A stretch of DNA of 64,000 nt, taken from assembly GCA_000165345.1 (NCBI GenBank), contig CM000431.1, positions 64,001 to 128,000 on the forward strand. Reading direction: 5' to 3'. Under the pieces are notes generated by a model. The model did not search any database. It was given only the letters and a program-made list of their open reading frames with translations, and had not been told where the DNA came from. The position numbers were made by a program, and so were the translations under genes. Within the stretch, counting starts at the first letter, position 1; each line of letters opens with the position of its first letter. Shown in pieces: positions 2,613 to 44,523 of the stretch.

Positions 2613-3024
2613 CTACGTATAGTTAAACATATTTGTAACTTATTTTTCCTTTTTTTTCCCAAAATCAACGCCCACTCTACATCTTTCTTACAGGTTTATT
2701 CACATGCAAATAATTTTTATTTTTTGTCCACATGAAATTGCAAAATTTTGGCAATAACAATAAAAATTAAATACCGGCATTTACATGCAATTTTGCGTAG
2801 TGTCAAATTATTAACGAAGGTTAAAGTCAGGTTGGGGGGCTGTTGTGATGATAGCGGCGTAGAAGCGAATGTGGCAAGCATGACGAACAATAGTGAAACA
2901 CAGTAGTCTTCATAATTTCTGAATTTAGTTCGTTCATAATATCAAATCTTTTTGGGTAAAACCATATAAATAAAACATGTAGAGGAGGCGAAGTATTTTG
3001 GTACAATTTTAGGATTAGACTTAC
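2613..3024 (-). other. PPKL intron 1 (412 nt, GT..AG).
   Basis: GTAAGT donor on the minus strand at 3019-3024. Acceptor TAG at 2613-2615. The phase is consistent with the flanking exons. Confidence 0.6.
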
Positions 3025-15800: not shown

Positions 15801-17213
15801 AATACAAATATTAATGAAATCAATCCATTATTTAAAAACATTAATAATTATTATATTTTTCAAAATGTTCCATTAGAACTTTTTATGTTCATTTTTGATT
15901 TTAATGCTTCAGCTACAAATAATCAAACAAATCTTCTTAAAAGTATTAATTTTAAAGATATTTCCATATTACATAACATTGCAATTTTACTTAAAAACTC
16001 TGTTCAAGACTTTTTATCAAATCAGAATAGTATAAATAATATGAATGGTAATTGTAATAATTCTTTAAAAAATAATAATTTAGGAAATTCTGGTATAAAT
16101 CCTAATATTGGTCCAAAACCAAAGAATAAGAACAATAAAAAAGGTATGAAGGTAAATCTTTTTGAATTCATTAGTCATCAAGAACAACAAAACCAACAAT
16201 TAAATACTAATCGTGGAAATATTACTGAATATTCTTCATCTTCATCTTCAAACATACCAGAAAACTGGCCAAAATTATTACCCATTTCCAAAACACTAAA
16301 ATCAATAGAAATTGAATATTATGAACTTTTACAAAGATATAATGATCTTTTCCCAGAATTTGTTAATAATCATATATTCAAAAATTGTTATTCATTTATT
16401 ATTGAAGAAAATAATAATCATAATGATAATAATGGTAATAATACTATGATTCAACTTATTGTTGAACTTAATAAATTGGATCATGAAATATCAATTTATA
16501 AACATTTCATAAATGATGAAAGTTTGGATGATTATCCAGAAATGAAACTTAAAATACAATTATTAATTGAAAAAGGATTCCTTAATGAAAATCTTACTAT
16601 TACAACTAAAGGTAGAATAGCATCAGAATTACTTACAAGTGATGAACTTACTTTAATAGAAATATTACTGAATGGTATGTTACATAAATTAAATAATATT
16701 CATGAAATTACGGCTATATTATCTTGCTTTGTATTTCCTGAAAAAATGGAATCATTATCAAATTCAAATACTAGTACAAATAATAATAATAATAATAATA
16801 ATATTCTTGGTATAGATAGACCTTCATTACCTTCTGTTGAACTTTTGAATGCTCATGATGAGCTTATTAATATTCATACAGATTATGAAAAAACTCATTA
16901 TAAACATCAAATAAATTTAGATACTGAACATTTTTGGTCTTTATGTAATGATAAATTTATGTTAATTGCTTATAAATGGTCAAATAAAGAATCACTTAAA
17001 GAGATTATGGAATTTGTACATAATTCTGAAATGAATTTACATGAAGGTACAATTGTTAGAACAATTTTAAGACTTGATGAACTTGTTAGAAAACTTATAA
17101 TAGCAGCAAAAATGATGGGAGATAAAATACTTGAAGAAAAATTATGTTTAATACATGAAAATATTGCCAGAGATATCATTTTTATGACTTCTCTTTACTT
17201 TAATTCCAACTAG
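12894..17213 (+). CDS. Ski2/Mtr4-family DExH-box RNA helicase (SKI2-like by size, 1439 aa).
   Basis: Motif I AHTSAGKT, motif II DEVH (FDEVHYIND), motif III SAT (LSATIPN), HHSGMLP, motif VI QMSGRAGRRG. C-terminal DSHCT-like region (...EGTIVRTILRLDELVRKL...ARDIIFMTSLYF). Acidic E-rich N-terminus. Internal Q/E/S repeats and poly-Asn tracts. Confidence 0.85.
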   Translation: MFANQDDFWTSDEEEEEEEGVEEEGVEEEEVEGEEDKDEEKNDQKNDLDMVEEKVSRISLKEGKEGEENGEEEERKKKKGFIRKKWSIEDERDVSDFREIIGYEPCKKEDLDDSEDLENVVLKYPYELDDFQKRAVINIHNGDHVLVAAHTSAGKTAVAEYAIELANKNGRKAIYTSPIKALSSQKYREFLNRFREYPAHSSFTQRNRIGIITGDVSINPDAQCVIMTTEILRTMLYRNDPCIEQIQTVIFDEVHYINDLERGVVWEEVLILLDPKVQLVLLSATIPNYIEFANWIGRIKQNTVYCIRTLHRPVPLKHYLYIYEKCFQIMDENNKFNINGYKEMLDFIKTSKSKKSISSLKSKVSKLSSSISKANSSQEIQSQEDPNQEDPSQEDPNQEDPSQEDPTQEVQSQEEPIQEDQSQETQSQETQSQEIQSQEAKVEDNNIAMLRISAINKQISSSAGAKGGSGGILSSAETKFKTEVYRLQVFLKLLEKNDQLPVILFGFSRRKVEQLATNLPNLNFLYNHNEKSNIITFIKESTSKLNELDQKIPQLLQCKELALRGIGIHHSGMLPIIKEMTEILFTRGLIKVLFATETISMGINCPARSIVFTSIKKYDGRKNRILLSSEYTQMSGRAGRRGIDTFGNVFIFNSSHETIPECIDIVKMMLNTYLPVQSKFRLTYQMILQLSCRHSLKIEDMMTKSFKEMFRSINLPIFHRNLNRKLKRHQIILSKLHSILESYNSNLVISNYNQRNTNQKDEFQFESDSESLLNIINGLISTIETSNLISGQLFQKLCNSSINKNIISQKILNPGRLILFNSFSLTGKSLPMFANILEYNPTSTLSSIIVYSQEFIDFQFSSNNYLSKNIMDGNDNNNNNNNNKGIGDSNNDIQFYDVVEESIQNYQNSNKNRQISVVQNLIDLDRSKKNNNQRNSSSSYSSKNSTTINLIHHSTFNSQKLLISTSLYNNTNINEINPLFKNINNYYIFQNVPLELFMFIFDFNASATNNQTNLLKSINFKDISILHNIAILLKNSVQDFLSNQNSINNMNGNCNNSLKNNNLGNSGINPNIGPKPKNKNNKKGMKVNLFEFISHQEQQNQQLNTNRGNITEYSSSSSSNIPENWPKLLPISKTLKSIEIEYYELLQRYNDLFPEFVNNHIFKNCYSFIIEENNNHNDNNGNNTMIQLIVELNKLDHEISIYKHFINDESLDDYPEMKLKIQLLIEKGFLNENLTITTKGRIASELLTSDELTLIEILLNGMLHKLNNIHEITAILSCFVFPEKMESLSNSNTSTNNNNNNNNILGIDRPSLPSVELLNAHDELINIHTDYEKTHYKHQINLDTEHFWSLCNDKFMLIAYKWSNKESLKEIMEFVHNSEMNLHEGTIVRTILRLDELVRKLIIAAKMMGDKILEEKLCLIHENIARDIIFMTSLYFNSN
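14021..14212 (+). repeat. In-frame coding minisatellite inside the helicase gene. 15/30-nt units (caagaagacccaaatcaagaggatcccagt duplicated, then caagaaactcaatcc x3) encode (QEDPNQEDPS)2 and (QETQS)n.
   Basis: Direct tandem repetition is visible in the sequence. It also produces the artefactual antisense ORFs 14008..14238 and 14019..14207 in the track. Confidence 0.8.
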
Positions 17214-17427
17214 AAAGTAAATAAGAAAAATAAAAAAATTCATGAAAAAAACAATACAAAATCACGATTTGATATAGGAAAAAAAATTTATTTTAGTTAG
17301 AAAAGGTTTAAGTTAAGTTAAGTTTTTGTAAGGTTTTATGTTTGATAGTTTTTAGTTTTGGGTTTTGGGGTTAAATTTGTCTTGGGATTTTGGGTTTTTT
17401 GGTTTAAAATAAAGAATTAAGGTTTTG

Positions 17428-18146
17428 CCTTTAAGAGTTGGCTTGAGGCTTGAGGCTTTCTGGCCTTTAAGAGTTGACTTAGGGTTTCAGGCTTTCTGAC
17501 CTTTAAGAGTTGGCTTAGGGTTTCAGGCTTTCTAGCCTCCAAGGGTGGTTGGCTTGAGGTTTCAGAATTTTTGGCCTTTAAGAGTTGACTTGGGGTTTCA
17601 GGCTTTCTGACCTTTAAGAGTTGGCTTAGGGTTTCAGGCTTTCAGGCTTTTTGGCCTTTAAGAGTTGGCTTAGGGTTTCAGGCTTTCAGGCTTTCTGGCC
17701 TTTAAGAGTTGGCTTGGGATTTCAGGCTTTCTGACCTTTAAGAGTTGACTTAGGGTTTCAGGCTTTCTGACCTTTAAGAGTTGGCTTAGGGTTTCAGGCT
17801 TTCTAGCCTCCAAGGGTGGTTGGCTTGAGGTTTCAGAATTTTTGGCCTTTAAGGGTTGGCTTAGGGTTTCAGGCTTTTTTGCCTTTAAGAGTTGAATTGG
17901 GGTTTCAGGTTTTTGGCCTTTAAGAGTTGGCTCAGGGTTTCAGGCTTTCTGGCTTTCTGGCTTTCAGGCTTTTTGGCCTTTAAGAGTTGACTTGGGGTTT
18001 CAGGCTTTCTGACCTTTAAAAGTTGACTTAGAGTTTCAGGCTTTCTGACCTTTAAGAGTTGGCTTAGGGTTTCAGGCTTTCTGGCTTTCAGGCTTTCTGG
18101 CCTTTAAGAGTTGGCTTGGGATTTCAGGCTTTCTGGCTTTCTAGCT
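17428..18146. repeat. Intergenic minisatellite of about 20 imperfect units of 36-39 bp (consensus cctttaagagttggcttagggtttcaggctttctgg). Each unit carries a TTAGGGTTT telomere-like core.
   Basis: Tandem periodicity is read directly. The array is bounded by an identical 19-mer ttaaaataaagaattaagg at 17404-17422 and 18147-18165. It is preceded by a G/T-rich tttagttttgggttttgggg tract at 17350-17372. Confidence 0.85.
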
Positions 18147-18450: not shown

Positions 18451-22267
<3,817 letters not shown>

Positions 22268-34490: not shown

Positions 34491-34563
34491 TGACCTGGTA
34501 GCTCCAACGGTAGAGCGTCTGACTCCAGATCAGACGGTTCAGGGTTCGAATCCCTGTCGGGTC
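34491..34563 (+). tRNA. tRNA-Trp (anticodon CCA at 34524-34526).
   Basis: Hand-folded cloverleaf. Acceptor GACCTGG/TCGGGTC (two G-U pairs). D stem gctc/gagc. Anticodon stem tctga/tcaga with loop cTCCAga. T arm caggg-TTCGAAT-ccctg with B box GGTTCGAATCC. Discriminator A. CCA is not encoded. Confidence 0.85.
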
Positions 34564-34564
34564 A

Positions 34565-34572
34565 CTTTTTTT
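34565..34572 (+). terminator. Pol III terminator T-run (T8) immediately 3' of the tRNA.
   Basis: cTTTTTTTTg directly follows the discriminator base. Confidence 0.7.
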
Positions 34573-34580
34573 TGAGCAGG

Positions 34581-34638
34581 CCAATTGGCGCCGGCGGCAA
34601 TTGTTATTTAGATAAACTGTGGGATGTGTATGCATGCA
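34581..34638. promoter_or_regulatory. Near-palindromic CAATTGGCGCCGGCGGCAATTG (20 of 22 positions symmetric) plus a TGCATGCA box at 34631-34638. It lies between the tRNA-Trp gene and the 34668 ATG.
   Basis: Read directly. Two inverted GGCGCC/GGCGGC cores. Confidence 0.45.
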
Positions 34639-35792: not shown

Positions 35793-36221
35793 ATAAAATA
35801 AAGCAAAATATATATAACTTTAAAGGACTGGAGACAATTACTTTCATCTCTTTTTTCATAAAGTAATAAAAAGCTTTTAGGAAATACACCATAAAAATGT
35901 TTATTTTTGGCTTTCATCTACTATTTGAATTTATCTTCTCTGTAGATATAATAATTATTCTCTAATTCAAAAAAAAAAGCTGTAAGATAACAAACAATAA
36001 CTCGGATAATTAAAGATGTTGTTTTGAAAACTGATGTTGTTACATCTGAAAGCTGAAATTAATAAAAAAAAAAAAACTGTTTAAAAAATGATTAATTTCT
36101 TTTTTAAAATTTTATACCTTTGTAAACTTTCTTTTTTTCTTTTTTTTTTAAAAAAAACTTCGATACCACCTCTTCCTCATCCTTTTGAAATAATATTTAC
36201 ATATAAGGCATCAGGACCGTA

Positions 36222-36256
36222 TGCATGCAATTTCCCGCCCAAATTTGGGCGGAAAA
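36222..36256. promoter_or_regulatory. TGCATGCA box followed by a near-perfect 26-bp palindrome TTTCCCGCCCAAA|TTTGGGCGGAAAA (a double E2F-like site).
   Basis: Read directly. It sits in a 3'-3' convergent gap, 36-70 bp beyond the CAF1 stop codon. Confidence 0.45.
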
Positions 36257-36291
36257 CTTGGAGAATTGGTGATAAAGACATGAAGATCGCT

Positions 36292-37125: not shown

Positions 37126-37819
37126 AATGGCTCCTCTCAGGCTTAGCTATTGCTAAATAATAGCAATAACGTAAAAACTTTCAATCTTTCAATTTTTACT
37201 GATTTTTTAAAATTATGAATAATATTAATTTGCCTGTCCAAATTTATTTAAAAAAAAAATTGGCGCCATTCCCTTGTGATGCTGTATGAGCGCGCGCCCT
37301 ATTTATTTAATTAGTAATTAACTTAATGTTCCCCCCTTCCAAAATTGAAATATTTTGTCAAGTTTTCAATATTTATTTTGAAAGTTATTATTTCTAAATT
37401 TCCAACTTCTATTTTCCCTCCCCCCCAATCCGTACTTAATTTTCAGTATTTTCAAAGTATATAATATAATTTCTGGGTAGGAAGGTAGTATTTAATTAAG
37501 TTATTTTTAGTGGCTTGCACTAAAGGTATGAGGTAATAGGGTTTGCCAGGAGTTGCATGAGCCAATAAAGAAAAAGATCTATTAGCATTATTGATATAAT
37601 AAATAATTAAATCAAAAAAAAAATATTACCACTTTATTCATAGTTTTGTGACCAATTGAAATATATCATATTCAAGAGCCTTCTCTTGACCAGTTATTTA
37701 GATTTCCTGGTATATTTTATAATATAAAAATTACAGTTTTATTAGTTATTAAAAGCTGTCAGATCTTGATTTAATTTCCCCTTTGATTGACTCTTGTTTC
37801 ATGTAAAAACCCTTCAAAA

Positions 37820-38212
37820 ATGGATCTTTTAAAGTCCACTATTTATGGGAACATAGACCAGGAATTTGTAATTGATAATACGTTAGATACTTGTTGTTTT
37901 CAATTTGAGACAGCTCAATCCACATTATCAATGGGTTTTGAAGATGATATATATTTACGTGACTCTATACAAACTTTACAAGATGATCCAGACCATATTG
38001 AACATACCGACCATAATTTTAATTTAAACTGGGATGAAGACTCCTCATTTGATCAAAAAAAACAAAAGGAGCTAAAGGAACTCACTTTCGAGCTCGCTAC
38101 TGATCCTTCTCCAAACTCTGAGTTTCTTGTTAGAGTAACTGAAACCTTAAATTCTATTTTACAGAACGAATTTAAAGCTCTTGATTTTCAAGTCTCTCCC
38201 TCCATTAGTTAA
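37820..38212 (+). CDS. Small acidic hypothetical protein, 130 aa, from the first ATG. The track ORF begins at an upstream TTG at 37787.
   Basis: Single ORF with coding-like composition, downstream of the divergent CAF1 promoter region. No recognisable domain. Confidence 0.4.
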   Translation: MDLLKSTIYGNIDQEFVIDNTLDTCCFQFETAQSTLSMGFEDDIYLRDSIQTLQDDPDHIEHTDHNFNLNWDEDSSFDQKKQKELKELTFELATDPSPNSEFLVRVTETLNSILQNEFKALDFQVSPSIS

Positions 38213-40161
38213 GCAGAATGGAGAATAAGCACATCACTTTTGGTTTTTATAGTTGATTAGAAATAATCAACGTAATTAGCTCTTCAGTCTTATATATCAT
38301 AATAATAATTATTATTTTAATCACCAGTCTTTATCAAGTTCTTATATACATCTACTTCTTAGAAAATTGTAACTTTTATTTCATGCTTATATGCATGTAT
38401 GCATATATGCATGCATTTGCGGGTATATAAATAATATATATCTATACTTAAACCCATTGCATGCAATATCTATTTTAAATGAATACTTATGTAATTATAA
38501 ACTTCAAATTACATGCAGCTTTTAATTCATTGATTTTTTATGCATTAATTAAATAAAATTGATTCTTTGAATTCCATAAATATAATTATCAAGTTTTTTC
38601 TCTTTAGTTTTGTTTTCTGAATATATTTTTTTCTTTAAATCCACCATCCCACCTAAACTTTTCGAGTTAAATGATTTCTGTTATTTAAAGAAACATTTAT
38701 CATTCTCGAATTCATAAAATTAAAATGACTTAAGGAGCTTTATTAAATTATTCCCACATACTTCAACTTCTCTTTTTTATAATTAATTAACTGAAATTAT
38801 TCATGAAAAATAGCCAAAGTTTACCCCCCCATGCAAAAAATGGATATTTGGAGTGAGTTTATTATATTTTAATTGCAAGTAAGTTCCCGCCTAGTTCTTT
38901 AGCACGTCTCTAAAAATAAAAATTTTTATTCACAATAAAAGAGTCGTGTAAAGCCAGGAAAAAACATAAGAGGAGTTTTAATAGTGCCACTTTAAAGCAA
39001 GAGCTGTGCACAGCTAATTTTTGACTTCCGATTAGTTGAGTGAGTCTTGGTCTAATTTATAAAGGCTTTTATAGGTGTATGATTCCAGTATCTAAAAGTG
39101 CTTGTAATTTATTTCTATATAGAAAACGTTGAAATATTACAGGTAAGGCTGAGACTTTTTAATCTTTGAATTGGAGTGGGTTTTTTTAGAATATATGAAA
39201 TTACCGTTGGTTCCTTTAGGTATTTAGAACAGAGTACATTCCACTTTAAAACTGGATTGCTATTTTTTATAATTATTTATTACCTTTACTGCTTATATAT
39301 TCAAATTGAAAGCTACCCCATAAACTCATTTTTTTTTTTTCTGAAGCCAATACTGAGTTATAAACAATTCATTGAGAAGCAGTTAAAAGGAAGATTAATG
39401 GATTTGTGATACAATTGGAATTATTCTCAAAACGAAAAATATATATATATTATATATTTTTCTCTTTCTCAATCGCTCTCTTTCTTTGGTTTAAGCACCA
39501 TAAATAAAATTAAAGTTTTAACAGAATAATAAGTTCTGCTAATTGTTTTCATTATTCCAAGTGAATTCTGTGTTATTCTAAACAGACAACATTGAAACTT
39601 TATTGACTTGCCATTCTTGCAAACAGTTAATGGTGTTAGAGAGTTGATAGAGAAAGATTGAAAACCTTTGTTTGTTTGTATGTATATGTATATATATATA
39701 TATATATATACTTCAAATTTTTTTTTCATCTTTTTTTTTGGATTATTGAGAAGATAGTGAAAGATTACTGAGATAAATTTCATTCAAAAATCTGTTGCTT
39801 TCATTTTTTTCTGGCACCTCTAAGCAACAATTAAGATAAAGTATAAGGCATTAAAAAGAAAAGATCCTCAAATAATTACTTCTCAACCAAATTATTTGTG
39901 TTGAATTTCCAGCGTTACTTTTGTCTAATTTATTTGGTTGAAGAGGATAACTTGAAATTACCAAATACTTCTTTAAACCAAGTTGCTCTTCGGAAGAAAT
40001 ATACTTATAAATAATTACATCGATAACCATTATAGAGGTTTTAAAAGGTTTTAAAATAATTAATTAACCACCCATTCAATTAAAGAATTAAAAAACAGAG
40101 ATTCATATATTACCAATAAACTTTCTTCACTTTTATTACTTTCCGATAATCACACAAAGAA

Positions 40162-43100
40162 ATGTCTGATAAAAAAACATCCACCATTATATGTGGATTT
40201 GAAAAGAAAAATCTGGAAGCCATAAAAACCTGTCTTGAGACGCATTTAAACAGAGAGAATATCTTAGATAATGCGGTAATACAAGAATGCTTCAATAAGG
40301 ATGTGTTGGGATTTTCTTTGGACTCTGTATCAAATTTGCAAGAATTAAAGGAAGTTTGGTATAGTTTATTTGGAAAAGATCCAAATACCAATAGAAAAGA
40401 GCTAATGCATGCGATCGGTATTAGTACTGGAATGTCTGAGGTTCTTAATCTTTCAATATACACACAATACGGGAATGAGATGAATTTAGGTATTTCCCAA
40501 TCAAATGAAGAGAAGAAGCTGAATGAAGAGGAATCCATGAATGCTTTGGTTGATACTTCAAAATTGATATTGGAATTTCTGGAAAATGGATGTGAAAAGG
40601 ATATTTATATTAAACCAATTTTCAAAGCTGAACGCACGACTCTAATTTTGCGTGATCTTGAGAATGATGTTATAGAGAATGAGATCTTTGACTTACTTAG
40701 TAAATGCCCTCATTTTCATACAGAAGAAACTTCTGAAAATAAAACAAATGAGTATAGTCTTGATGCTGTTAAGAAACTGGTCGTCAATTTTCGGAAAGAA
40801 GTTCATGGTACCTGGTTTATCACTCTTAAAACTGAGGATTTGACAACAAAAGTTGCCTTATGGTTACGTGATCAAAAACTGAGAGATAACAATAGTTCTT
40901 TATTACGAGTTGGAATAAAATCAGAGCACCCAATTGCTAGTCTTTTATCAGTATTGTCGATGAATAAGGGTATCCAATCAATACATAACAGAATGAGCAA
41001 CTTGCAGTTATCAGGAACTGAGATGGGAATTGGGATTCCTCCAATCTTATCAACTCTAAATGCTCCGCTTTCCAACTTACCTCCAAATATATCGAGTAGT
41101 GAACTTATAAACGTGAGCGCTGGAAATGTACCAAACAGTACTGTTTTAGATGGTCCCTCTTCAAATAGAAGAACTGCGTTGGGAAATGTTAGCCCAAATA
41201 TGAGTTATATGTTGAATACCCCAGGTTGCTCAAATAGCGGATTCATTCAAACTCACCCTCAGATAAATAGGCCCAACCAAGAGAATGATCATTCGACTAA
41301 GGATACAGGAAATGAACCACAAATAGGTATGGACAATTTGAATAGTCAGAATCCTGAGCATTTAACTGCGCCTCTTCCTGTAATGTATCCATATCATAGA
41401 GGTATTGGAAGAGCTATTGGAGTTCCGAACCATACAACTCCTTTAAATATCTATGGGCCAATACCAGGGGCTCCTAATGGTGGAATAATTGCTCCAATTA
41501 TTGTTGTTCCCGGAGCTACAATACCAGGAGGTATGGCTACATCTCCACTCCCTTCTCCAACACCGGAAGTAGGCTCACCAAATGCATCAAAAACAGGTGA
41601 TACGGAAGTTACCAAGTCCCCAAAGAATAACCATAAGAGGAGAGGTTCAAAGTCGTCATATATTAGTGATTCTGATACAAAAAGTTTATCTCCAAATATT
41701 TCCAACAGAAGAAGTAGCCCAGATGCTACCAATAATGTCAAACCTGCAAGCGAAGTCGAGAATTGTGGAGCCTTACCTGTGGCTGATGGTATGAACTCAG
41801 TAATTAGAGGAATTCCTCAGGGAGCTACCACAATGATACATGGAATAACTCCCTTTTATTATGGAATCTCAGGACTTTCAGAGGTACAGCCAGTCAATTT
41901 ACAATACTTAGGGGGCGGACCTCATCTTGGGCCTCATCCCCACATTTTCATTCATGGGAATCCACAATTCCATTATCATCATCAGATCGATATAGGAGCT
42001 CCTGGAGCAGCTGTTCAAGGAGATTCTGGAGACATGGAATCAAGCCCACCAAATACTATATCGAATTCTGAAGCCAACAAAGACAACATACAGCATATAA
42101 AACCTCAAATACCAACAATGTTCCCTGCTGGATATTATCATAATGTTCATTATATTGGAGATGAATCTTTAGGAGCTATTGGAAACCATGGATTTTCTGC
42201 TGGTAGCTTTGCAATCAATAATATTGGAGGAGACGGTATTGTTGTACCTGGGAATTTAAATGCTCAGGGCCGGAGTTTTTGGGTTAGAAACCCTTCAAAC
42301 AATACTGGAAACCAAAAATTTAAGGCTAATGGACGAAAGAACAATAATTCCAGTGGCAATCGTACAGGTAATAAATCCAGCCTTAACCCTTCCAACCCAA
42401 AGAAAAATAATAATCAAAAATCGTCTTTTGTGAATGGAACTAATCCAGAAGGCACATACTCTGAACCAAAGGTAGGATCGAAAACAGCAAGTATTTCCAA
42501 ATCTCCAGTAAATGACGCTATTACAAAGCATGATGAAATTGATCAATATGAAAATGCAGAAATGTGCTCAACCAATAGCTCTAAACAATATCCGAGTAAT
42601 GAGAAAGAAATCGAGTGTTCACCATCCGAAGAAGCACATATTGGAGACAACTCATCTATAACCGAAAATACAGCAAATACTTGTACTTCCTGTGCTAATG
42701 ATGATAACCAAAACCGAATTTCCAAGAAACTCCCGAATGAATCTTCAAAATTACCAATAGATGAGCCCCAAGACAAGCAGCAAACATTTAATAAGACCTT
42801 CAAACCCTTTTTGAATTCTGCCGGCAAGTCAAGAGGCCATAGAAATAGCAAAAACTCTTCAAACGGTGGTGGGAACTCTGAAGGAAAGGGAAACCTTGAA
42901 TATAGTGAGCATAGATCCAATCTAGCCAATGATAAATCAAAAGTACCTGATGGTACTAAAGGTAATAATGGACCAAACAATCAGGCTGCCGAGACTGGAT
43001 TAAATTATCATCAAAGAAGAAGAACCTCCAGGCAAATTAATACTGGTAGTGGTGGTTTTGGTGGAAGAGAAAATGGAAAATTTACACATGGAAAGTATAA

Positions 43101-43344
43101 TAATGGATATGAAAACAACCATTTTCGCTTAAAGCGTACAACTGAAAATGAACAGTCACACTTTAATTTTAATAATCATGGAAAACAGTCTGATGGATAT
43201 TCGAATAACAATCATTCCTATGGTAATAAGTCAATTAACCATAAAGGCAAAGGAAATGCAGCCAAAAGCAATTACCAAGAATCAAAAGAAATTGGCTTGG
43301 ATCATTTTCCATCATTATCTGATGCAATGGCAACCAAAAAGTAG
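40162..43344 (+). CDS. Hypothetical protein, 1060 aa. The N-terminal 300 aa are structured. The remainder is Ser/Asn/Gly/Pro-rich and disordered.
   Basis: Long ORF from the first ATG. No family recognised. I considered a La/RRM-like region (KPIFKAERTTLILRDLEN...) but could not confirm it. Confidence 0.6.
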   Translation: MSDKKTSTIICGFEKKNLEAIKTCLETHLNRENILDNAVIQECFNKDVLGFSLDSVSNLQELKEVWYSLFGKDPNTNRKELMHAIGISTGMSEVLNLSIYTQYGNEMNLGISQSNEEKKLNEEESMNALVDTSKLILEFLENGCEKDIYIKPIFKAERTTLILRDLENDVIENEIFDLLSKCPHFHTEETSENKTNEYSLDAVKKLVVNFRKEVHGTWFITLKTEDLTTKVALWLRDQKLRDNNSSLLRVGIKSEHPIASLLSVLSMNKGIQSIHNRMSNLQLSGTEMGIGIPPILSTLNAPLSNLPPNISSSELINVSAGNVPNSTVLDGPSSNRRTALGNVSPNMSYMLNTPGCSNSGFIQTHPQINRPNQENDHSTKDTGNEPQIGMDNLNSQNPEHLTAPLPVMYPYHRGIGRAIGVPNHTTPLNIYGPIPGAPNGGIIAPIIVVPGATIPGGMATSPLPSPTPEVGSPNASKTGDTEVTKSPKNNHKRRGSKSSYISDSDTKSLSPNISNRRSSPDATNNVKPASEVENCGALPVADGMNSVIRGIPQGATTMIHGITPFYYGISGLSEVQPVNLQYLGGGPHLGPHPHIFIHGNPQFHYHHQIDIGAPGAAVQGDSGDMESSPPNTISNSEANKDNIQHIKPQIPTMFPAGYYHNVHYIGDESLGAIGNHGFSAGSFAINNIGGDGIVVPGNLNAQGRSFWVRNPSNNTGNQKFKANGRKNNNSSGNRTGNKSSLNPSNPKKNNNQKSSFVNGTNPEGTYSEPKVGSKTASISKSPVNDAITKHDEIDQYENAEMCSTNSSKQYPSNEKEIECSPSEEAHIGDNSSITENTANTCTSCANDDNQNRISKKLPNESSKLPIDEPQDKQQTFNKTFKPFLNSAGKSRGHRNSKNSSNGGGNSEGKGNLEYSEHRSNLANDKSKVPDGTKGNNGPNNQAAETGLNYHQRRRTSRQINTGSGGFGGRENGKFTHGKYNNGYENNHFRLKRTTENEQSHFNFNNHGKQSDGYSNNNHSYGNKSINHKGKGNAAKSNYQESKEIGLDHFPSLSDAMATKK

Positions 43345-44523
43345 ATAACTCAACTTCTTTACTTGATTGTAAATCCACTGAACTTGAAGAATTGAAGTGT
43401 CAGGTCACTCTTTTTTTTAAAACTGAGCTCATCTGTTCAACTTTTTCTCCATGTTGACGCTTTGTAAATCTTTAAAATATTGTCTTGGACCTTAAAACAA
43501 AGCCTTAACGCTTCAATATTTTATACGCTAAACCAAAAACCTCATCTCTCTTTATTTTCAATGTTGAATTCAAAAACCCATCAATCCAGCCATTTTTTGT
43601 CTTTTTTTGCAAGCAACTGCCTGTTATTTTTTACCGGTGCATGCATACATATTTTTTTGTGCATGTACCTTTCTCATGTGGAAAGGCGGGGACTCCGCGA
43701 CTAGAAAAATAACTATAAATTGACTTGGAGATGCAGTAAAAACTAATTAAAAAACAATAATTAATTTATGAAAATAAAATAAATGGGGCGAATAGTGGTG
43801 ATAGGGAAAGAAGAATCAAGCCTTCCAGATGGCTTACTTCGGGATATTTTTTTTTTTTGCTTTAATAAAAGAAACTTAAAATAAATGAATTTTTAAATAA
43901 AATAATACATTTTGAAAATAAACCCTGAGGCAGATTATAATTAATTGATGCTTCTTTGACTTTTCGACTAATAGCAATAATAAGAATAATTGGTTCTGTT
44001 GAAAATACACTCGGCCAAGGCAGATAATGTAACTATATACCAGACCGAGGACCCATTCTAATCTTAGTGTGCTTCATTACGAATATTTACTCCCAAGCAT
44101 CTTGAAAGTTCTTAGAAGAGCAAGTTGTTTTCATGATTTTTTTAACTTCAAATTCGAATCAATTAAACGCATTAAATGGTATATTTGGACATTTACTATA
44201 TTAATGCTAACAAGGCCTGACATGTACTAACCTTGTGGAGGTAGAGATAAAGATATAAATAATCAAATCAAGAAAAGATTAGAGATTCTGAACTTAATAC
44301 CATTCTAGAATTTAATTCTGAGAGAGCTACCTCATTAATCAAGTAATTTTTAGTCATGAAAGTCAGGATATTTTTTTGATAGTTTTCAAATTACAATTTT
44401 TTTTTTTTTTTAAGTTAAATTGATTGATCAGAAAGACTGAGAAGATCATAAATATATTGCAAAATTATTTTACTTATATATTTGCTCCGAATATTATAAT
44501 TAAAATGATTAGATCTATTTTAG

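Follow-up and report, generated by a model that had tools for sequence, protein, structure and literature searches.

The locus raises the question of what occupies the 1,949 bp (38213-40161) that separate cgd3_360 from cgd3_380 in C. parvum. In the window, by which we mean the whole 64,000-nt stretch of DNA that was analysed (window position + 67019 gives the position in CP044420.1, chromosome 3 of C. parvum IOWA-ATCC), this is the longest of the 16 spacers separating large ORFs; the runners-up measure 1,263, 1,237 and 1,179 bp. Intergenic distance in the C. parvum genome averages 504 bp (PMC7840661). The original prediction spoke of a gene-less interval of 1.95 kb. The length stands, but 'gene-less' has to be taken to mean that no credible gene is present, as a small hypothetical gene (cgd3_370) is annotated inside it. 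The spacer is flanked as follows:

37820..38212, plus strand, cgd3_360 / CPATCC_001006, the upstream neighbour (130 aa), whose stop codon forms the left end of the interval.
40162..43344, plus strand, cgd3_380 / CPATCC_001008, the downstream neighbour (1,060 aa).

For cgd3_360, orthologue calls exist in C. hominis, C. meleagridis, chipmunk genotype I and C. ubiquitum, and the spacer keeps a length of 1.94-1.99 kb in these four species and C. parvum. No Pfam domain was found in the cgd3_380 protein; its N-terminus is conserved starting at the ATG, and the sequence 5' of that codon diverges immediately. The results below support the presence of one or more functional non-coding elements in the spacer, and cgd3_380 is the likely target of the control region that it contains.

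Conservation was followed across six aligned species (C. parvum, C. hominis, C. meleagridis, chipmunk genotype I, C. ubiquitum and C. canis). In both C. bovis and C. xiaoi, the contigs break within the interval. Four conserved blocks and one repeat were delimited, with identities given relative to C. parvum in the order hominis/meleagridis/chipmunk/ubiquitum/canis:

38895..39060, putatively plus strand, Block A body, identity 0.99/0.96/0.84/0.80/0.66.
39190..39245, plus strand, Block C, core TTCAGGTATYTARAACRGAG, identity 0.96/0.95/0.77/0.71/0.51.
39350..39500, plus strand, Block B, identity 0.98/0.94/0.90/0.83/0.55.
39600..39675, plus strand, Block D, with GAGA-like GTTAGAGAGTTGATAGAGAAAGATTG, identity 0.99/0.92/0.83/0.75/0.37.
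39678..39711, no strand assigned, (TG/TA)n microsatellite, with two T9 runs after it (39718-39739).

With the start of the cgd3_380 CDS as reference (0.98/0.93/0.85/0.76/0.60), the four blocks are conserved about as well as the flanking coding sequence, or better. Between C. parvum and C. ubiquitum, Blocks A and B reach 0.80-0.83, compared to 0.41-0.54 in background spacer and 0.71-0.76 in flanking CDS, and in 100-nt windows their conservation equals that of the tRNA-Trp gene and the CAF1 CDS. Searches with nhmmer against C. canis recovered Block A (E=1e-38) and Block B (E=1e-13), and Block C was also matched. Block D, whose GAGA motif is tabulated in PMC12246861 Table 3, is present in Logan contigs L009 and L010. 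Each block is single-copy within the window. The remainder of the spacer behaves differently: directly 3' of the cgd3_360 stop there is little conservation and there are many indels, and the 480 nt next to the cgd3_380 ATG are the least conserved part (0.41 to C. ubiquitum), with many indels and small conserved islands. The microsatellite varies in length, being longer in C. hominis and missing from chipmunk genotype I and C. ubiquitum.

This conservation does not follow a reading frame. The blocks contain 1-2-nt indels between species (1 nt in Block A; 1-2 nt in Block B of C. meleagridis) and show translated similarity in every frame on both strands, and they are therefore non-coding. A comparison of all 89 stop-to-stop peptides with C. 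ubiquitum and C. canis for hidden coding exons likewise returned frame-independent similarity, and the only long ORF in Block A (48 codons, minus strand) is stopped in those two species. Two other small ORFs lie where the original prediction had placed them:

39176..39409, plus strand, 77-aa ORF with a GTG start.
39469..39783, minus strand, cgd3_370 / CPATCC_001007, annotated as a 104-aa hypothetical protein, which reads YIYIYIYIYI across a TA tract.

Both had been considered not credible, and the comparison agrees with that view, as stops or frameshifts interrupt them in each of the five species aligned with C. parvum. The 77-aa ORF is judged spurious because of its stops in all other species. 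A real protein product of cgd3_370, or of any other small ORF or exon here, would be in keeping with the annotation of cgd3_370 in both C. parvum Iowa II and IOWA-ATCC, yet its frame is broken even in C. hominis, its product forms a singleton cluster among ~15 billion proteins and has no Pfam match, and its loss has been reported for chipmunk genotype I (PMC6532270). We judge that cgd3_370 is not a real gene, and a protein-coding role for the interval is almost certainly to be dismissed.

A short way upstream of Block A lie three groups of motifs that are canonical for C. parvum promoters:

38392..38517, no strand assigned, AP2_1-type box cluster, six TGCATG with both strands counted.
38824..38843, plus strand, C7ATGCAAAAAATGG element, a G-box followed by CATGCA.
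38868..38894, plus strand, composite of AATTGCAAGTAAG and TTCCCGCCTAG, marking the left limit of strong conservation.

GCATGC and TGCATG boxes had been pointed out before, and they are found at the positions claimed, with TGCATG at 38392, 38408/38410, 38458/38460, 38512 and 38830 and GCATGC at 38409 and 38459. Within the cluster are two full TGCATGCA palindromes (38408-38415 and 38458-38465), and this type of motif is listed as ApiAP2 AP2_1 (PMC12246861 Table 3; PMC7840661 Table S3). Both words are enriched in the window (TGCATG, 59 observed vs 23 expected; GCATGC, 19 vs 4.9), and none of 100 shuffles reached the observed number in either case. The cluster is present in 6/6 species, with turnover of single sites and 0.50 identity to C. 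ubiquitum. Also present is the second element of the original prediction, composed of a C7 run (38824-38830) and ATGCAAAAAATGG (38831-38843). It reads CCCC.C, the complement of G.GGGG, and its CATGCA is the minus-strand TGCATG core; the six species keep it as (C/T)n-ATGCA-R-R-M-A-R-T-R-R-ATA. The G-box motif is tabulated in PMC12246861 Table 3. The third group includes TTCCCGCCTAG (38884-38894), which fits the E2F/DP1 consensus TTSSCGCCWAA (PMC7840661 Table S3), and the whole composite is almost invariant across the six species. TTSSCGCC occurs 16 times in the window, where 0.53 occurrences are expected. A comparable composite, TGCATGCAATTTCCCGCC, is located at 36222-36239. Both the GCATGC and the C7ATGCA elements belong to the ordinary motifs of transcription factors and not to an RNA.

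CATGCA at 38830 stands 54 nt from the E2F site at 38884, and pairs of E2F and TGCATG motifs are found 80-470 nt 5' of six start codons of the window (7461, 12423, 22449, 33069, 34585 and 55921). The pair in the spacer has the layout of the other six, yet the nearest ATG, that of cgd3_380, is 1,278 nt away, and we call it an orphan promoter for this reason. Neither E2F nor TGCATG motifs occur between 38,900 and the cgd3_380 ATG. Published C. parvum lncRNAs carry E2F and AP2_1 motifs less than 100 nt upstream (PMC7840661), and E2F is the dominant motif in sporozoite open chromatin (bioRxiv 10.1101/2025.01.17.633476).

We propose that this orphan promoter is of the standard C. parvum type, its TGCATGCA boxes (38392-38517), G-box with CATGCA (38824-38843) and E2F/DP1 site TTCCCGCCTAG (38884-38894) facing rightwards into ~800 nt of non-coding sequence (Blocks A, C, B and D) on which purifying selection is strong. 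Transcription of this non-coding unit, on the plus strand, would begin ~100 nt or less 3' of the E2F site, and the Block A body is predicted to be the 5' part of its transcript. The rightward direction is suggested because the strong conservation lies to the right of the E2F site; in the parallel case of CAF1, the 135 nt from E2F site to ATG (37126-37260) are 0.84-0.90 identical. The plus strand is favored because one-sided changes in candidate hairpins (G-U to A-U, G-C to G-U and U-A to U-G) preserve pairing on that strand only. We infer transcription, its strand, the ends of the RNA and the link to cgd3_380 from such features of the sequence. That the region is transcribed, be it as a separate RNA or as one long leader of cgd3_380, has in our estimate a probability of roughly 70%.

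The form of this transcription that we prefer has two modules, and we give it a little less than an even chance. A separate non-coding RNA would have Block A as its conserved 5' module, under constraint at the level of sequence and not of structure, and Block B, with its TATA-like tract and pyrimidine-rich stretch, would together with Block D provide the core promoter and a ~0.7-kb leader for cgd3_380. Block B comprises the conserved GAAGATTAATGGATTTGTGATACAATTGGAA, TA-rich sequence at 39437-39461 and the pyrimidine-rich TTTTTCTCTTTCTCAATCGCTCTCTTTC (39457-39489). Neither the TA tract nor the CT stretch varies among five species, and both can still be recognised in C. canis and in two Logan contigs that come from species further away; a three-codon ATG-N6-TGA mini-ORF is kept in the six species. 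Block B might be read as a TATA-like core promoter and start region of cgd3_380 or, alternatively, as an internal module of an RNA; a promoter for cgd3_380 at the TA tract is our conjecture. More tentatively, Block A, perhaps together with C, B and D, could be a non-coding RNA restricted to the intestinal clade, in which sequence and not fold is selected. Such an RNA, which we consider rather unlikely in this exact form, would have its own AP2/E2F promoter and no counterpart in described RNA families, and it could act in cis as a regulator of cgd3_380 or as a guide- or sponge-like RNA.

The covariance and structure scans proposed with the original prediction revealed no known RNA family. At gathering score, a scan of the whole window with Rfam 15 is passed by tRNA-Trp alone (34492-34565). 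At E<=10, the interval gives nothing real, only repeat-driven microRNA matches and one H/ACA match (E=8). The best match in 37700-40400 is mir-297 on TG/TA repeats, with 29 bits against a threshold of 90, and the (TG/TA)n microsatellite accounts for the spurious matches to mir-297 and mir-1277. Within Block A lie a possible hairpin GCACGUCUCU...AGAGUCGUGU, an invariant palindrome AGCTGTGCACAGCT, a U-run AAUUUUUGA (39016-39024) that resembles an Sm site, and a possible 3' hairpin at 39033-39056. Its folding z-scores are not significant (-0.99 on the plus strand, -0.58 on the minus strand). RNAalifold gave -14.5 kcal/mol, no compensatory pairs and a covariation term of -0.16 kcal/mol. A structure drawn by hand was 89% paired with two pairs changed on both sides, a score equalled by 22/500 shuffles. 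Six sequences as close as these give such tests little power. When RNAalifold was run in sliding windows against column shuffles, the palindromic TGCATGCA regions and the TA repeats were all that stood out, which is trivial. Part of Block A may instead consist of DNA-binding sites, not RNA, because the GTGCAC inside AGCTGTGCACAGCT resembles an ApiAP2 DNA motif.

A member of a known structured family (snRNA, snoRNA, RNase MRP RNA, telomerase RNA or similar) could be imagined from the Sm-like U-run, behind which a possible hairpin shows one double change (U-A to G-C), and from the absence of RNase MRP and telomerase RNAs among those reported for C. parvum by Rfam-based annotation (PMC9465071). 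The scans speak against it, as does the U-run itself, whose position is not kept in C. canis. U1, U2, U4, U5, U6, U3, SRP and RNase P RNAs are already assigned to single copies (PMC9465071), and none was detected in the window. A U1-like 5' end was considered in minus-strand CAGGTAAGG, and an snRNA was rejected as U1-U6 are assigned elsewhere, the U-run shifts in C. canis, and AAUUUUUGA and CAGGTAAGG are on inconsistent strands. A telomerase RNA was rejected as well, the interval holding no (CCTAAA) template 9-mer (TTTAGG on the other strand), and by reading the sequence no C/D or H/ACA box arrangement was seen. We regard a known family as very improbable here. Concerning transcripts, 18 tags from both strands of the interval had no match among the part of the lncRNA FASTA of PMC7840661 that was compared. 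Tags from the spacer at 35.8-36.2 kb were likewise unmatched in that part, so the tag method is without a positive control in the window. No cDNA name of the 'Cdg3_FLc' type was found in the literature. Among assembled contigs, those matched by the cgd3_380, cgd3_370 and CAF1 proteins were all of genome size, none of them a transcript.

It was originally suggested that the interval could contain a spliced non-coding RNA or an upstream non-coding exon of cgd3_380, with a short intron as one of the clues:

39143..39189, plus strand, candidate 47-nt intron GTAAGG...TTTTTTTAG preceded by CAG, not supported.

The sequence is indeed present in C. parvum; its donor (CAG|GTAAGG) is good, it also holds TTTAAT as a branch-like site, a T7 tract and AG, and its length is near that of PPKL intron 2 in the window (54 nt, donor GTAAGTCT). 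GTAAG is kept in chipmunk genotype I, and the GCAAG of C. hominis and C. meleagridis could be a rare GC donor. As donor dinucleotide, however, C. ubiquitum has GA and C. canis has GG, so that GT occurs only in C. parvum and chipmunk genotype I, and the T-tract and AG acceptor, kept in five species, are lost in C. canis. In addition, 39061-39189 is among the less conserved portions of the central region. The pattern GTAAG...Y6...AG has eight matches on both strands of the window (128 kb of sequence), and with a chance of ~0.2 for this interval one match in 2 kb is unsurprising. A spliced RNA using this intron is very improbable. Compared with the short GT-AG introns of C. parvum, such as PPKL intron 2, the candidate is alike in length and in the look of donor and acceptor in C. 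parvum only, and unlike in that its donor dinucleotide is not conserved in 4/5 other species. What is supported of the suggestion is the functional non-coding content, in the form of four conserved blocks behind an AP2/G-box/E2F promoter; the specific evidence offered with it is not.

Among the other ways to read the conserved blocks, the nearest to ours is that the AP2/E2F promoter at ~38.88 kb belongs to cgd3_380 itself, with Blocks A-D in a ~1.2-kb 5' leader that may be spliced. This amounts to the upstream exon suggested originally, minus its 47-nt intron. The blocks share the strand of cgd3_380 and remain collinear with that gene in all six species, and no E2F or TGCATG motif intervenes from 38,900 to the ATG. 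The published lncRNA pipeline drops transcripts that read into a neighbouring mRNA, which with a long leader would explain the absence of an lncRNA match. In C. muris an E2F-like AACCGCCTAA lies ~480 nt 5' of the orthologous ATG in an otherwise empty spacer, although similarity to this species is not above chance. A candidate GT...Yn-AG pair (39219-39346) flanks the least conserved, length-variable stretch from Block C to Block B in most species, but conservation extends ~20 nt beyond the candidate donor at 39219, unusual for an intron. Furthermore, a leader of 1.2 kb is extreme against the 504 bp mean intergenic distance (PMC7840661), and the poor conservation of the ATG-proximal 480 nt, with its small islands, is as in a proximal promoter. 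We hold the long leader to be somewhat less probable than the two-module form.

Less likely again, and unlikely in our judgement, is that the blocks function as DNA only, as dense protein-binding sites (a distal enhancer, extended promoter or chromatin element) serving cgd3_380 or cgd3_360 with no stable RNA of their own. The conserved AP2_1, G-box, E2F and GAGA-like motifs, the palindromes within Block A and the absent or weak signals of RNA structure are all in line with it, and a TA tract that stays invariant despite the fast mutation of TA repeats fits a DNA-binding protein such as TBP. In contrast, unbroken runs of 150-170 nt at coding-level conservation far exceed the need of 6-11-bp sites with free spacers; the AP2 cluster at 38392-38517, at 0.50 to C. 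ubiquitum, shows the site turnover that would be expected. The one-sided changes in candidate stems, wobble-compatible on the plus strand alone, also point away from DNA. The interval could finally be the internal UTR of a dicistronic cgd3_360-cgd3_380 transcript. The two genes share a strand, polycistronic transcripts exist in C. parvum, and an E2F motif is found in 160/201 internal UTRs (bioRxiv 10.1101/2025.01.17.633476). Nonetheless, the pair is unnamed in the main text of that report, 1.95 kb is very long for an internal UTR in the C. parvum genome, and the sequence after the cgd3_360 stop is poorly conserved and indel-rich, so that we find a dicistronic unit hardly credible.

Beyond the six species, the syntenic spacer of C. 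muris is only 602 bp long and shows no similarity to the interval above shuffles. The feature is thus not universal in the genus. A 20-base gapped pattern from Block A returned five matches in JGI metagenomes, all GC-rich and attributed to chance.

If the proposal of a promoter with a conserved non-coding unit is true, the C. parvum reference annotation would lose the spurious cgd3_370 and gain a conserved non-coding unit at CP044420.1 ~105.9-106.7 kb; the feature may already be in the CpBGF telomere-to-telomere annotation. It would also offer a clean natural AP2/G-box/E2F promoter separable from coding sequence and useful for promoter dissection, in a species in which almost no regulatory element has been tested so far. 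The interval is an ordinary kind of feature and reveals no new class of biology, since the lncRNAs known from C. parvum number several hundred and its intermediate-size ncRNAs dozens, with the same motifs upstream of them.

Long 5' untranslated leaders are typical of Plasmodium and Toxoplasma mRNAs. The spacer is similar to them in having the strand of its downstream gene, conserved patches and the mini-ORF of Block B, and differs in that such lengths are not typical of Cryptosporidium; uORFs are not described in this genus (PMC12246861). It also has features in common with the lincRNAs and is-ncRNAs of C. parvum (Li et al. 2021, PMC7840661; Li et al. 2022, PMC9465071), being intergenic, AT-rich, non-coding and single-copy with E2F and AP2 motifs upstream. 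Like the 15 is-ncRNAs reported as conserved in close relatives only, it is conserved among intestinal species and undetectable in C. muris. Unlike these RNAs, it is known here from sequence, with no match in the part of the lncRNA FASTA compared, and it has little of the conserved secondary structure that was selected for in the 2022 screen.

A further comparison is with the known upstream regulatory regions of C. parvum, in which ApiAP2 TGCATGCA, G-box and E2F/DP1 motifs have been described (Mullapudi 2007; Oberstaller 2013, tabulated in PMC12246861 and PMC7840661). The spacer shares with them the motifs, their enrichment and their cross-species conservation, and the pairing of AP2 and E2F sites within ~100 nt is that of six annotated promoters in the window. 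It differs from them in that no start codon follows for 1,278 nt, compared to 80-470 nt for the others in the window, and in that 170 nt of near-invariant non-coding sequence lie 3' of its E2F site.

The 1,060-aa ORF at 40162..43344 was found with every residue identical on CP044420.1 of Cryptosporidium parvum IOWA-ATCC (GCA_015245375.1), where coordinates equal window coordinates plus 67,019, and exact look-up identified the genes on both sides of the 38213-40161 spacer as well as one within it. At 1,949 bp this spacer is the longest of the 16 in the window (runners-up 1,263, 1,237, and 1,179 bp); the mean intergenic distance of the genome is 504 bp (PMC7840661). The original prediction, which had singled out the interval for its unusual length and its sequence features, was right in its observation. 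All feature positions were correct on re-checking the sequence, and the region is functional. Orthologous loci were compared from C. hominis (L003), C. meleagridis (L006), chipmunk genotype I (L007), C. ubiquitum (L008), and C. canis (L012) and, further, from two more distant species in Logan assemblies (L009 and L010), C. xiaoi (L011), C. bovis (L004), and C. muris (L005). The spacer measures 1.94-1.99 kb in C. parvum, C. hominis, C. meleagridis, chipmunk genotype I, and C. ubiquitum, and only 602 bp in C. muris. In the six-species alignment four blocks stand clearly above background, and the spacer contains a non-coding segment conserved over about 0.8 kb.

Features of the spacer and its flanks, with identity to C. 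parvum in the order C. hominis / C. meleagridis / chipmunk genotype I / C. ubiquitum / C. canis.
37820..38212, cgd3_360 / CPATCC_001006, flanking gene, 130 aa
38895-39060, Block A, 0.99 / 0.96 / 0.84 / 0.80 / 0.66
39190-39245, Block C, 0.96 / 0.95 / 0.77 / 0.71 / 0.51
39350-39500, Block B, 0.98 / 0.94 / 0.90 / 0.83 / 0.55
39469..39783, minus strand, cgd3_370 / CPATCC_001007, annotated gene, 104-aa ORF inside the interval
39600-39675, Block D, 0.99 / 0.92 / 0.83 / 0.75 / 0.37
40162..43344, cgd3_380 / CPATCC_001008, flanking gene, 1,060 aa
40162-40400, first 240 nt of the cgd3_380 CDS, 0.98 / 0.93 / 0.85 / 0.76 / 0.60

Outside the blocks, spacer identity is 0.41-0.54 to C. ubiquitum and 0.2-0.3 to C. 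canis, and in 100-nt windows the conservation of Blocks A and B equals that of the coding sequence of CAF1 and of the tRNA-Trp gene. The blocks are single-copy within the window and differ between species by 1-2-nt indels. Both Logan contigs begin precisely in Block B's TA tract (L009 1-80, L010 1-60) and retain TTTTTCTCTTTCTCAA and Block D; together with C. xiaoi (L011 1-30) and C. bovis (L004 1-60), which break at G-rich runs, they make four independent assemblies that end inside the spacer. Such repeated breaks indicate a region that is hard to assemble, so lengths from draft genomes may be wrong. The C. muris spacer contains AACCGCCTAA...CGTCTC...TGCACAGTATTT (L005 9040-9110, minus strand) soon after the stop of the cgd3_360 orthologue, a stretch that resembles both ends of Block A by eye and whose overall similarity is not above shuffles. 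Block B also holds a three-codon mini-ORF, ATG-N6-TGA (ATGGATTTGTGA, 39398-39409), whose ATG and TGA are both retained across the six species; the genus Cryptosporidium has no described uORFs (PMC12246861).

The interval, which had been called gene-less, indeed contains no real ORF, but the annotated gene cgd3_370 lies inside it. Stops or frameshifts interrupt its frame, and also that of a 77-aa plus-strand ORF, in each of the five other aligned species. The cgd3_370 protein is a singleton among ~15 billion proteins and has no Pfam match, and the gene was reported "lost" in chipmunk genotype I (PMC6532270). As a test for hidden exons, all 89 stop-to-stop translations of the interval were set against the orthologous intervals of C. 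ubiquitum and C. canis. Translated similarity within the conserved blocks appeared in all frames and on both strands, and the blocks are therefore conserved at the nucleotide level. The one long minus-strand ORF of Block A, with 48 codons, runs into stops in both C. ubiquitum and C. canis.

Upstream motifs of C. parvum include E2F/DP1 TTSSCGCCWAA and ApiAP2 ANTTGCATGYA (PMC7840661, Table S3), as well as AP2_1 TGCATGCA, the G-box G.GGGG, and GAGA (PMC12246861, Table 3). A canonical, conserved AP2/G-box/E2F promoter lies directly upstream of the conserved segment. Its E2F site TTCCCGCCTAG (38884-38894) forms the left edge of conserved sequence, is nearly invariant across six species, and is preceded by AATTGCAAGTAAG, with one mismatch to the ApiAP2 consensus. 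The predicted C7 run with ATGCAAAAAATGG is present at 38824-38843; this C7ATGCA element, 54 nt upstream of the E2F site, combines a G-box with a TGCATG core and is conserved in six species. The GCATGC/TGCATG boxes were also found as described (TGCATG at 38392, 38408/38410, 38458/38460, 38512, and 38830; GCATGC at 38409 and 38459), and a TGCATGCA cluster 370-490 nt upstream of the E2F site is kept in all species while its individual sites turn over. In the window TGCATG occurs 59 times vs 23 expected and GCATGC 19 times vs 4.9 (equalled in 0 of 100 shuffles), and TTSSCGCC 16 times vs 0.53. Elsewhere in the window, pairs of E2F and TGCATG sites (7461, 12423, 22449, 33069, 34585, 55921) precede a start codon by 80-470 nt. 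No ATG follows the 38830/38884 pair over the next 1,278 nt, and this pair is therefore an orphan promoter.

Other parts of the window offer related observations. A second orphan promoter-like composite, TATGCATGCAATTTCCCGCCCAAATTTGGGCGGAAAA (36222-36258), sits in the spacer on which the 374-aa gene and CAF1 converge and comprises one AP2_1 box plus a pair of inverted E2F sites; with a nearby 150-nt block (35912-36061, 0.82 identity to C. ubiquitum) it could represent an unannotated RNA, perhaps antisense. Downstream of cgd3_380, the convergent spacer of 1,179 bp holds three TGCATG matches (43638-43665), one TGCATGCA among them, with no start codon close by; they are possibly another ncRNA or antisense promoter. 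In the 34492-34600 region, tRNA-Trp (CCA) lies 20 nt upstream of back-to-back E2F sites (34585, 34593), themselves 80 nt upstream of the ATG of the 374-aa gene, a very tight arrangement of Pol III gene and Pol II promoter. Between ORFs ending at 17213 and 18451, ~14 copies of a 36-nt unit (GCCTTTAAGAGTTGGCTTGGGGTTTCAGGCTTTCTG, 81% matches) form a tandem array (17427-18142), whose period points to a protein repeat of 12 residues or a repeat gene missing from the annotation. GC readings of 8-11% at 19-21 kb are produced jointly by 500 N (20327-20826, masked or gap) and the very AT-rich, (ATT)n-rich stretch around them, so the low GC is partly an artefact and not a centromere-like feature.

The original prediction had also proposed a 47-nt intron resembling those of PPKL. 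GTAAGG...TTTTTTTAG is present at 39143-39189, and PPKL, on the minus strand below 3,106, has GTAAGTCT donors and a second intron of 54 nt, but the candidate intron is not conserved across species. The donor dinucleotide (39143-39144) is GT in C. parvum and chipmunk genotype I, whereas C. hominis and C. meleagridis have GC, C. ubiquitum has GA, and C. canis has GG. The acceptor T-tract and AG are present in five species and absent from C. canis. Because, in addition, GTAAG...Y6...AG recurs (8 occurrences in the window; chance of one within the interval ~0.2), the intron was rejected as evidence. In most species an alternative pair, GTAT at 39219 and Yn-AG at ~39346, flanks the stretch between Blocks C and B where conservation is lowest and length varies; this pair is a lead only. 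PPKL intron 1 (2615-3024, minus strand; ~410 nt, long for C. parvum) contains two TGCATG boxes (2703, 2784) and could be an intronic promoter or host an RNA.

The segment matches no known RNA family and has no convincing RNA structure. A covariance scan of the interval returned only repeat-driven microRNA matches far below threshold, and at gathering score Rfam found tRNA-Trp and nothing else in the whole window. U1-U6, U3, SRP, and RNase P, already assigned as single copies in the C. parvum genome (PMC9465071), were not detected in the window by Rfam; the telomere-template 9-mer is absent from the interval, and the position of an Sm-like AAUUUUUGA is not conserved in C. canis. The predicted fold of Block A is no more stable than those of shuffled sequences (z = -0.99 plus strand, -0.58 minus strand), and RNAalifold on six species gave -14.5 kcal/mol with a covariation term of -0.16 and zero compensatory pairs. 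When RNAalifold was run in sliding windows against column shuffles, nothing stood out except the palindromic TGCATGCA and the TA-repeat regions. Pairing reaches 89% in a hand-drawn three-hairpin structure, and two of its pairs have changed on both sides; this was equalled by 22 of 500 shuffles, and one of the sequences had served to derive the structure. Where only one side of a candidate stem has changed, wobble pairing is kept on the plus strand alone, which hints weakly at a plus-strand RNA. Eighteen interval tags, covering both strands, had no match in the accessible part of the lncRNA sequences of Li et al. (2021), where tags from one neighboring spacer were also unmatched. Protein look-ups with cgd3_380, cgd3_370, and CAF1 gave genome-sized contigs only, and thus no assembled transcripts.

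The hidden non-coding feature of the original prediction stands as a conserved non-coding segment with a promoter, but the specific intron argument fails. We tentatively favor, at a probability of about 0.4, a separate ncRNA followed by the promoter of cgd3_380. Plus-strand transcription would start in Block A, which may be the conserved 5' module of this RNA, and Block B (a TATA-like tract and pyrimidine stretch) with Block D would provide the core promoter and leader of cgd3_380. This reading is preferred because the blocks are discrete, long, and near-invariant, and because the 480 nt proximal to the cgd3_380 ATG consist of small islands in a variable background, like an ordinary promoter. 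A single ~1.2 kb leader of cgd3_380 would explain why the blocks are collinear with that gene and why no canonical motif lies closer to its ATG; we consider it somewhat less likely. The palindromes, the recognized motifs, and the lack of RNA structure would suit regulatory modules acting at the DNA level with no stable RNA, an explanation we regard as less likely still, and minor alternatives share the remaining probability. The answer is probably already present in existing long-read and ATAC data; the CpBGF annotation includes 766 lncRNAs, 87 sncRNAs, and Iso-seq UTRs.

A promoter with no assigned gene next to conserved non-coding sequence is an ordinary feature for the C. parvum genome. Strong conservation runs rightwards of the E2F site at 38884-38894, and the CAF1 promoter likewise has 135 strongly conserved nt from E2F site to ATG. 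By this parallel, a plus-strand start would be placed within ~100 nt after 38894.
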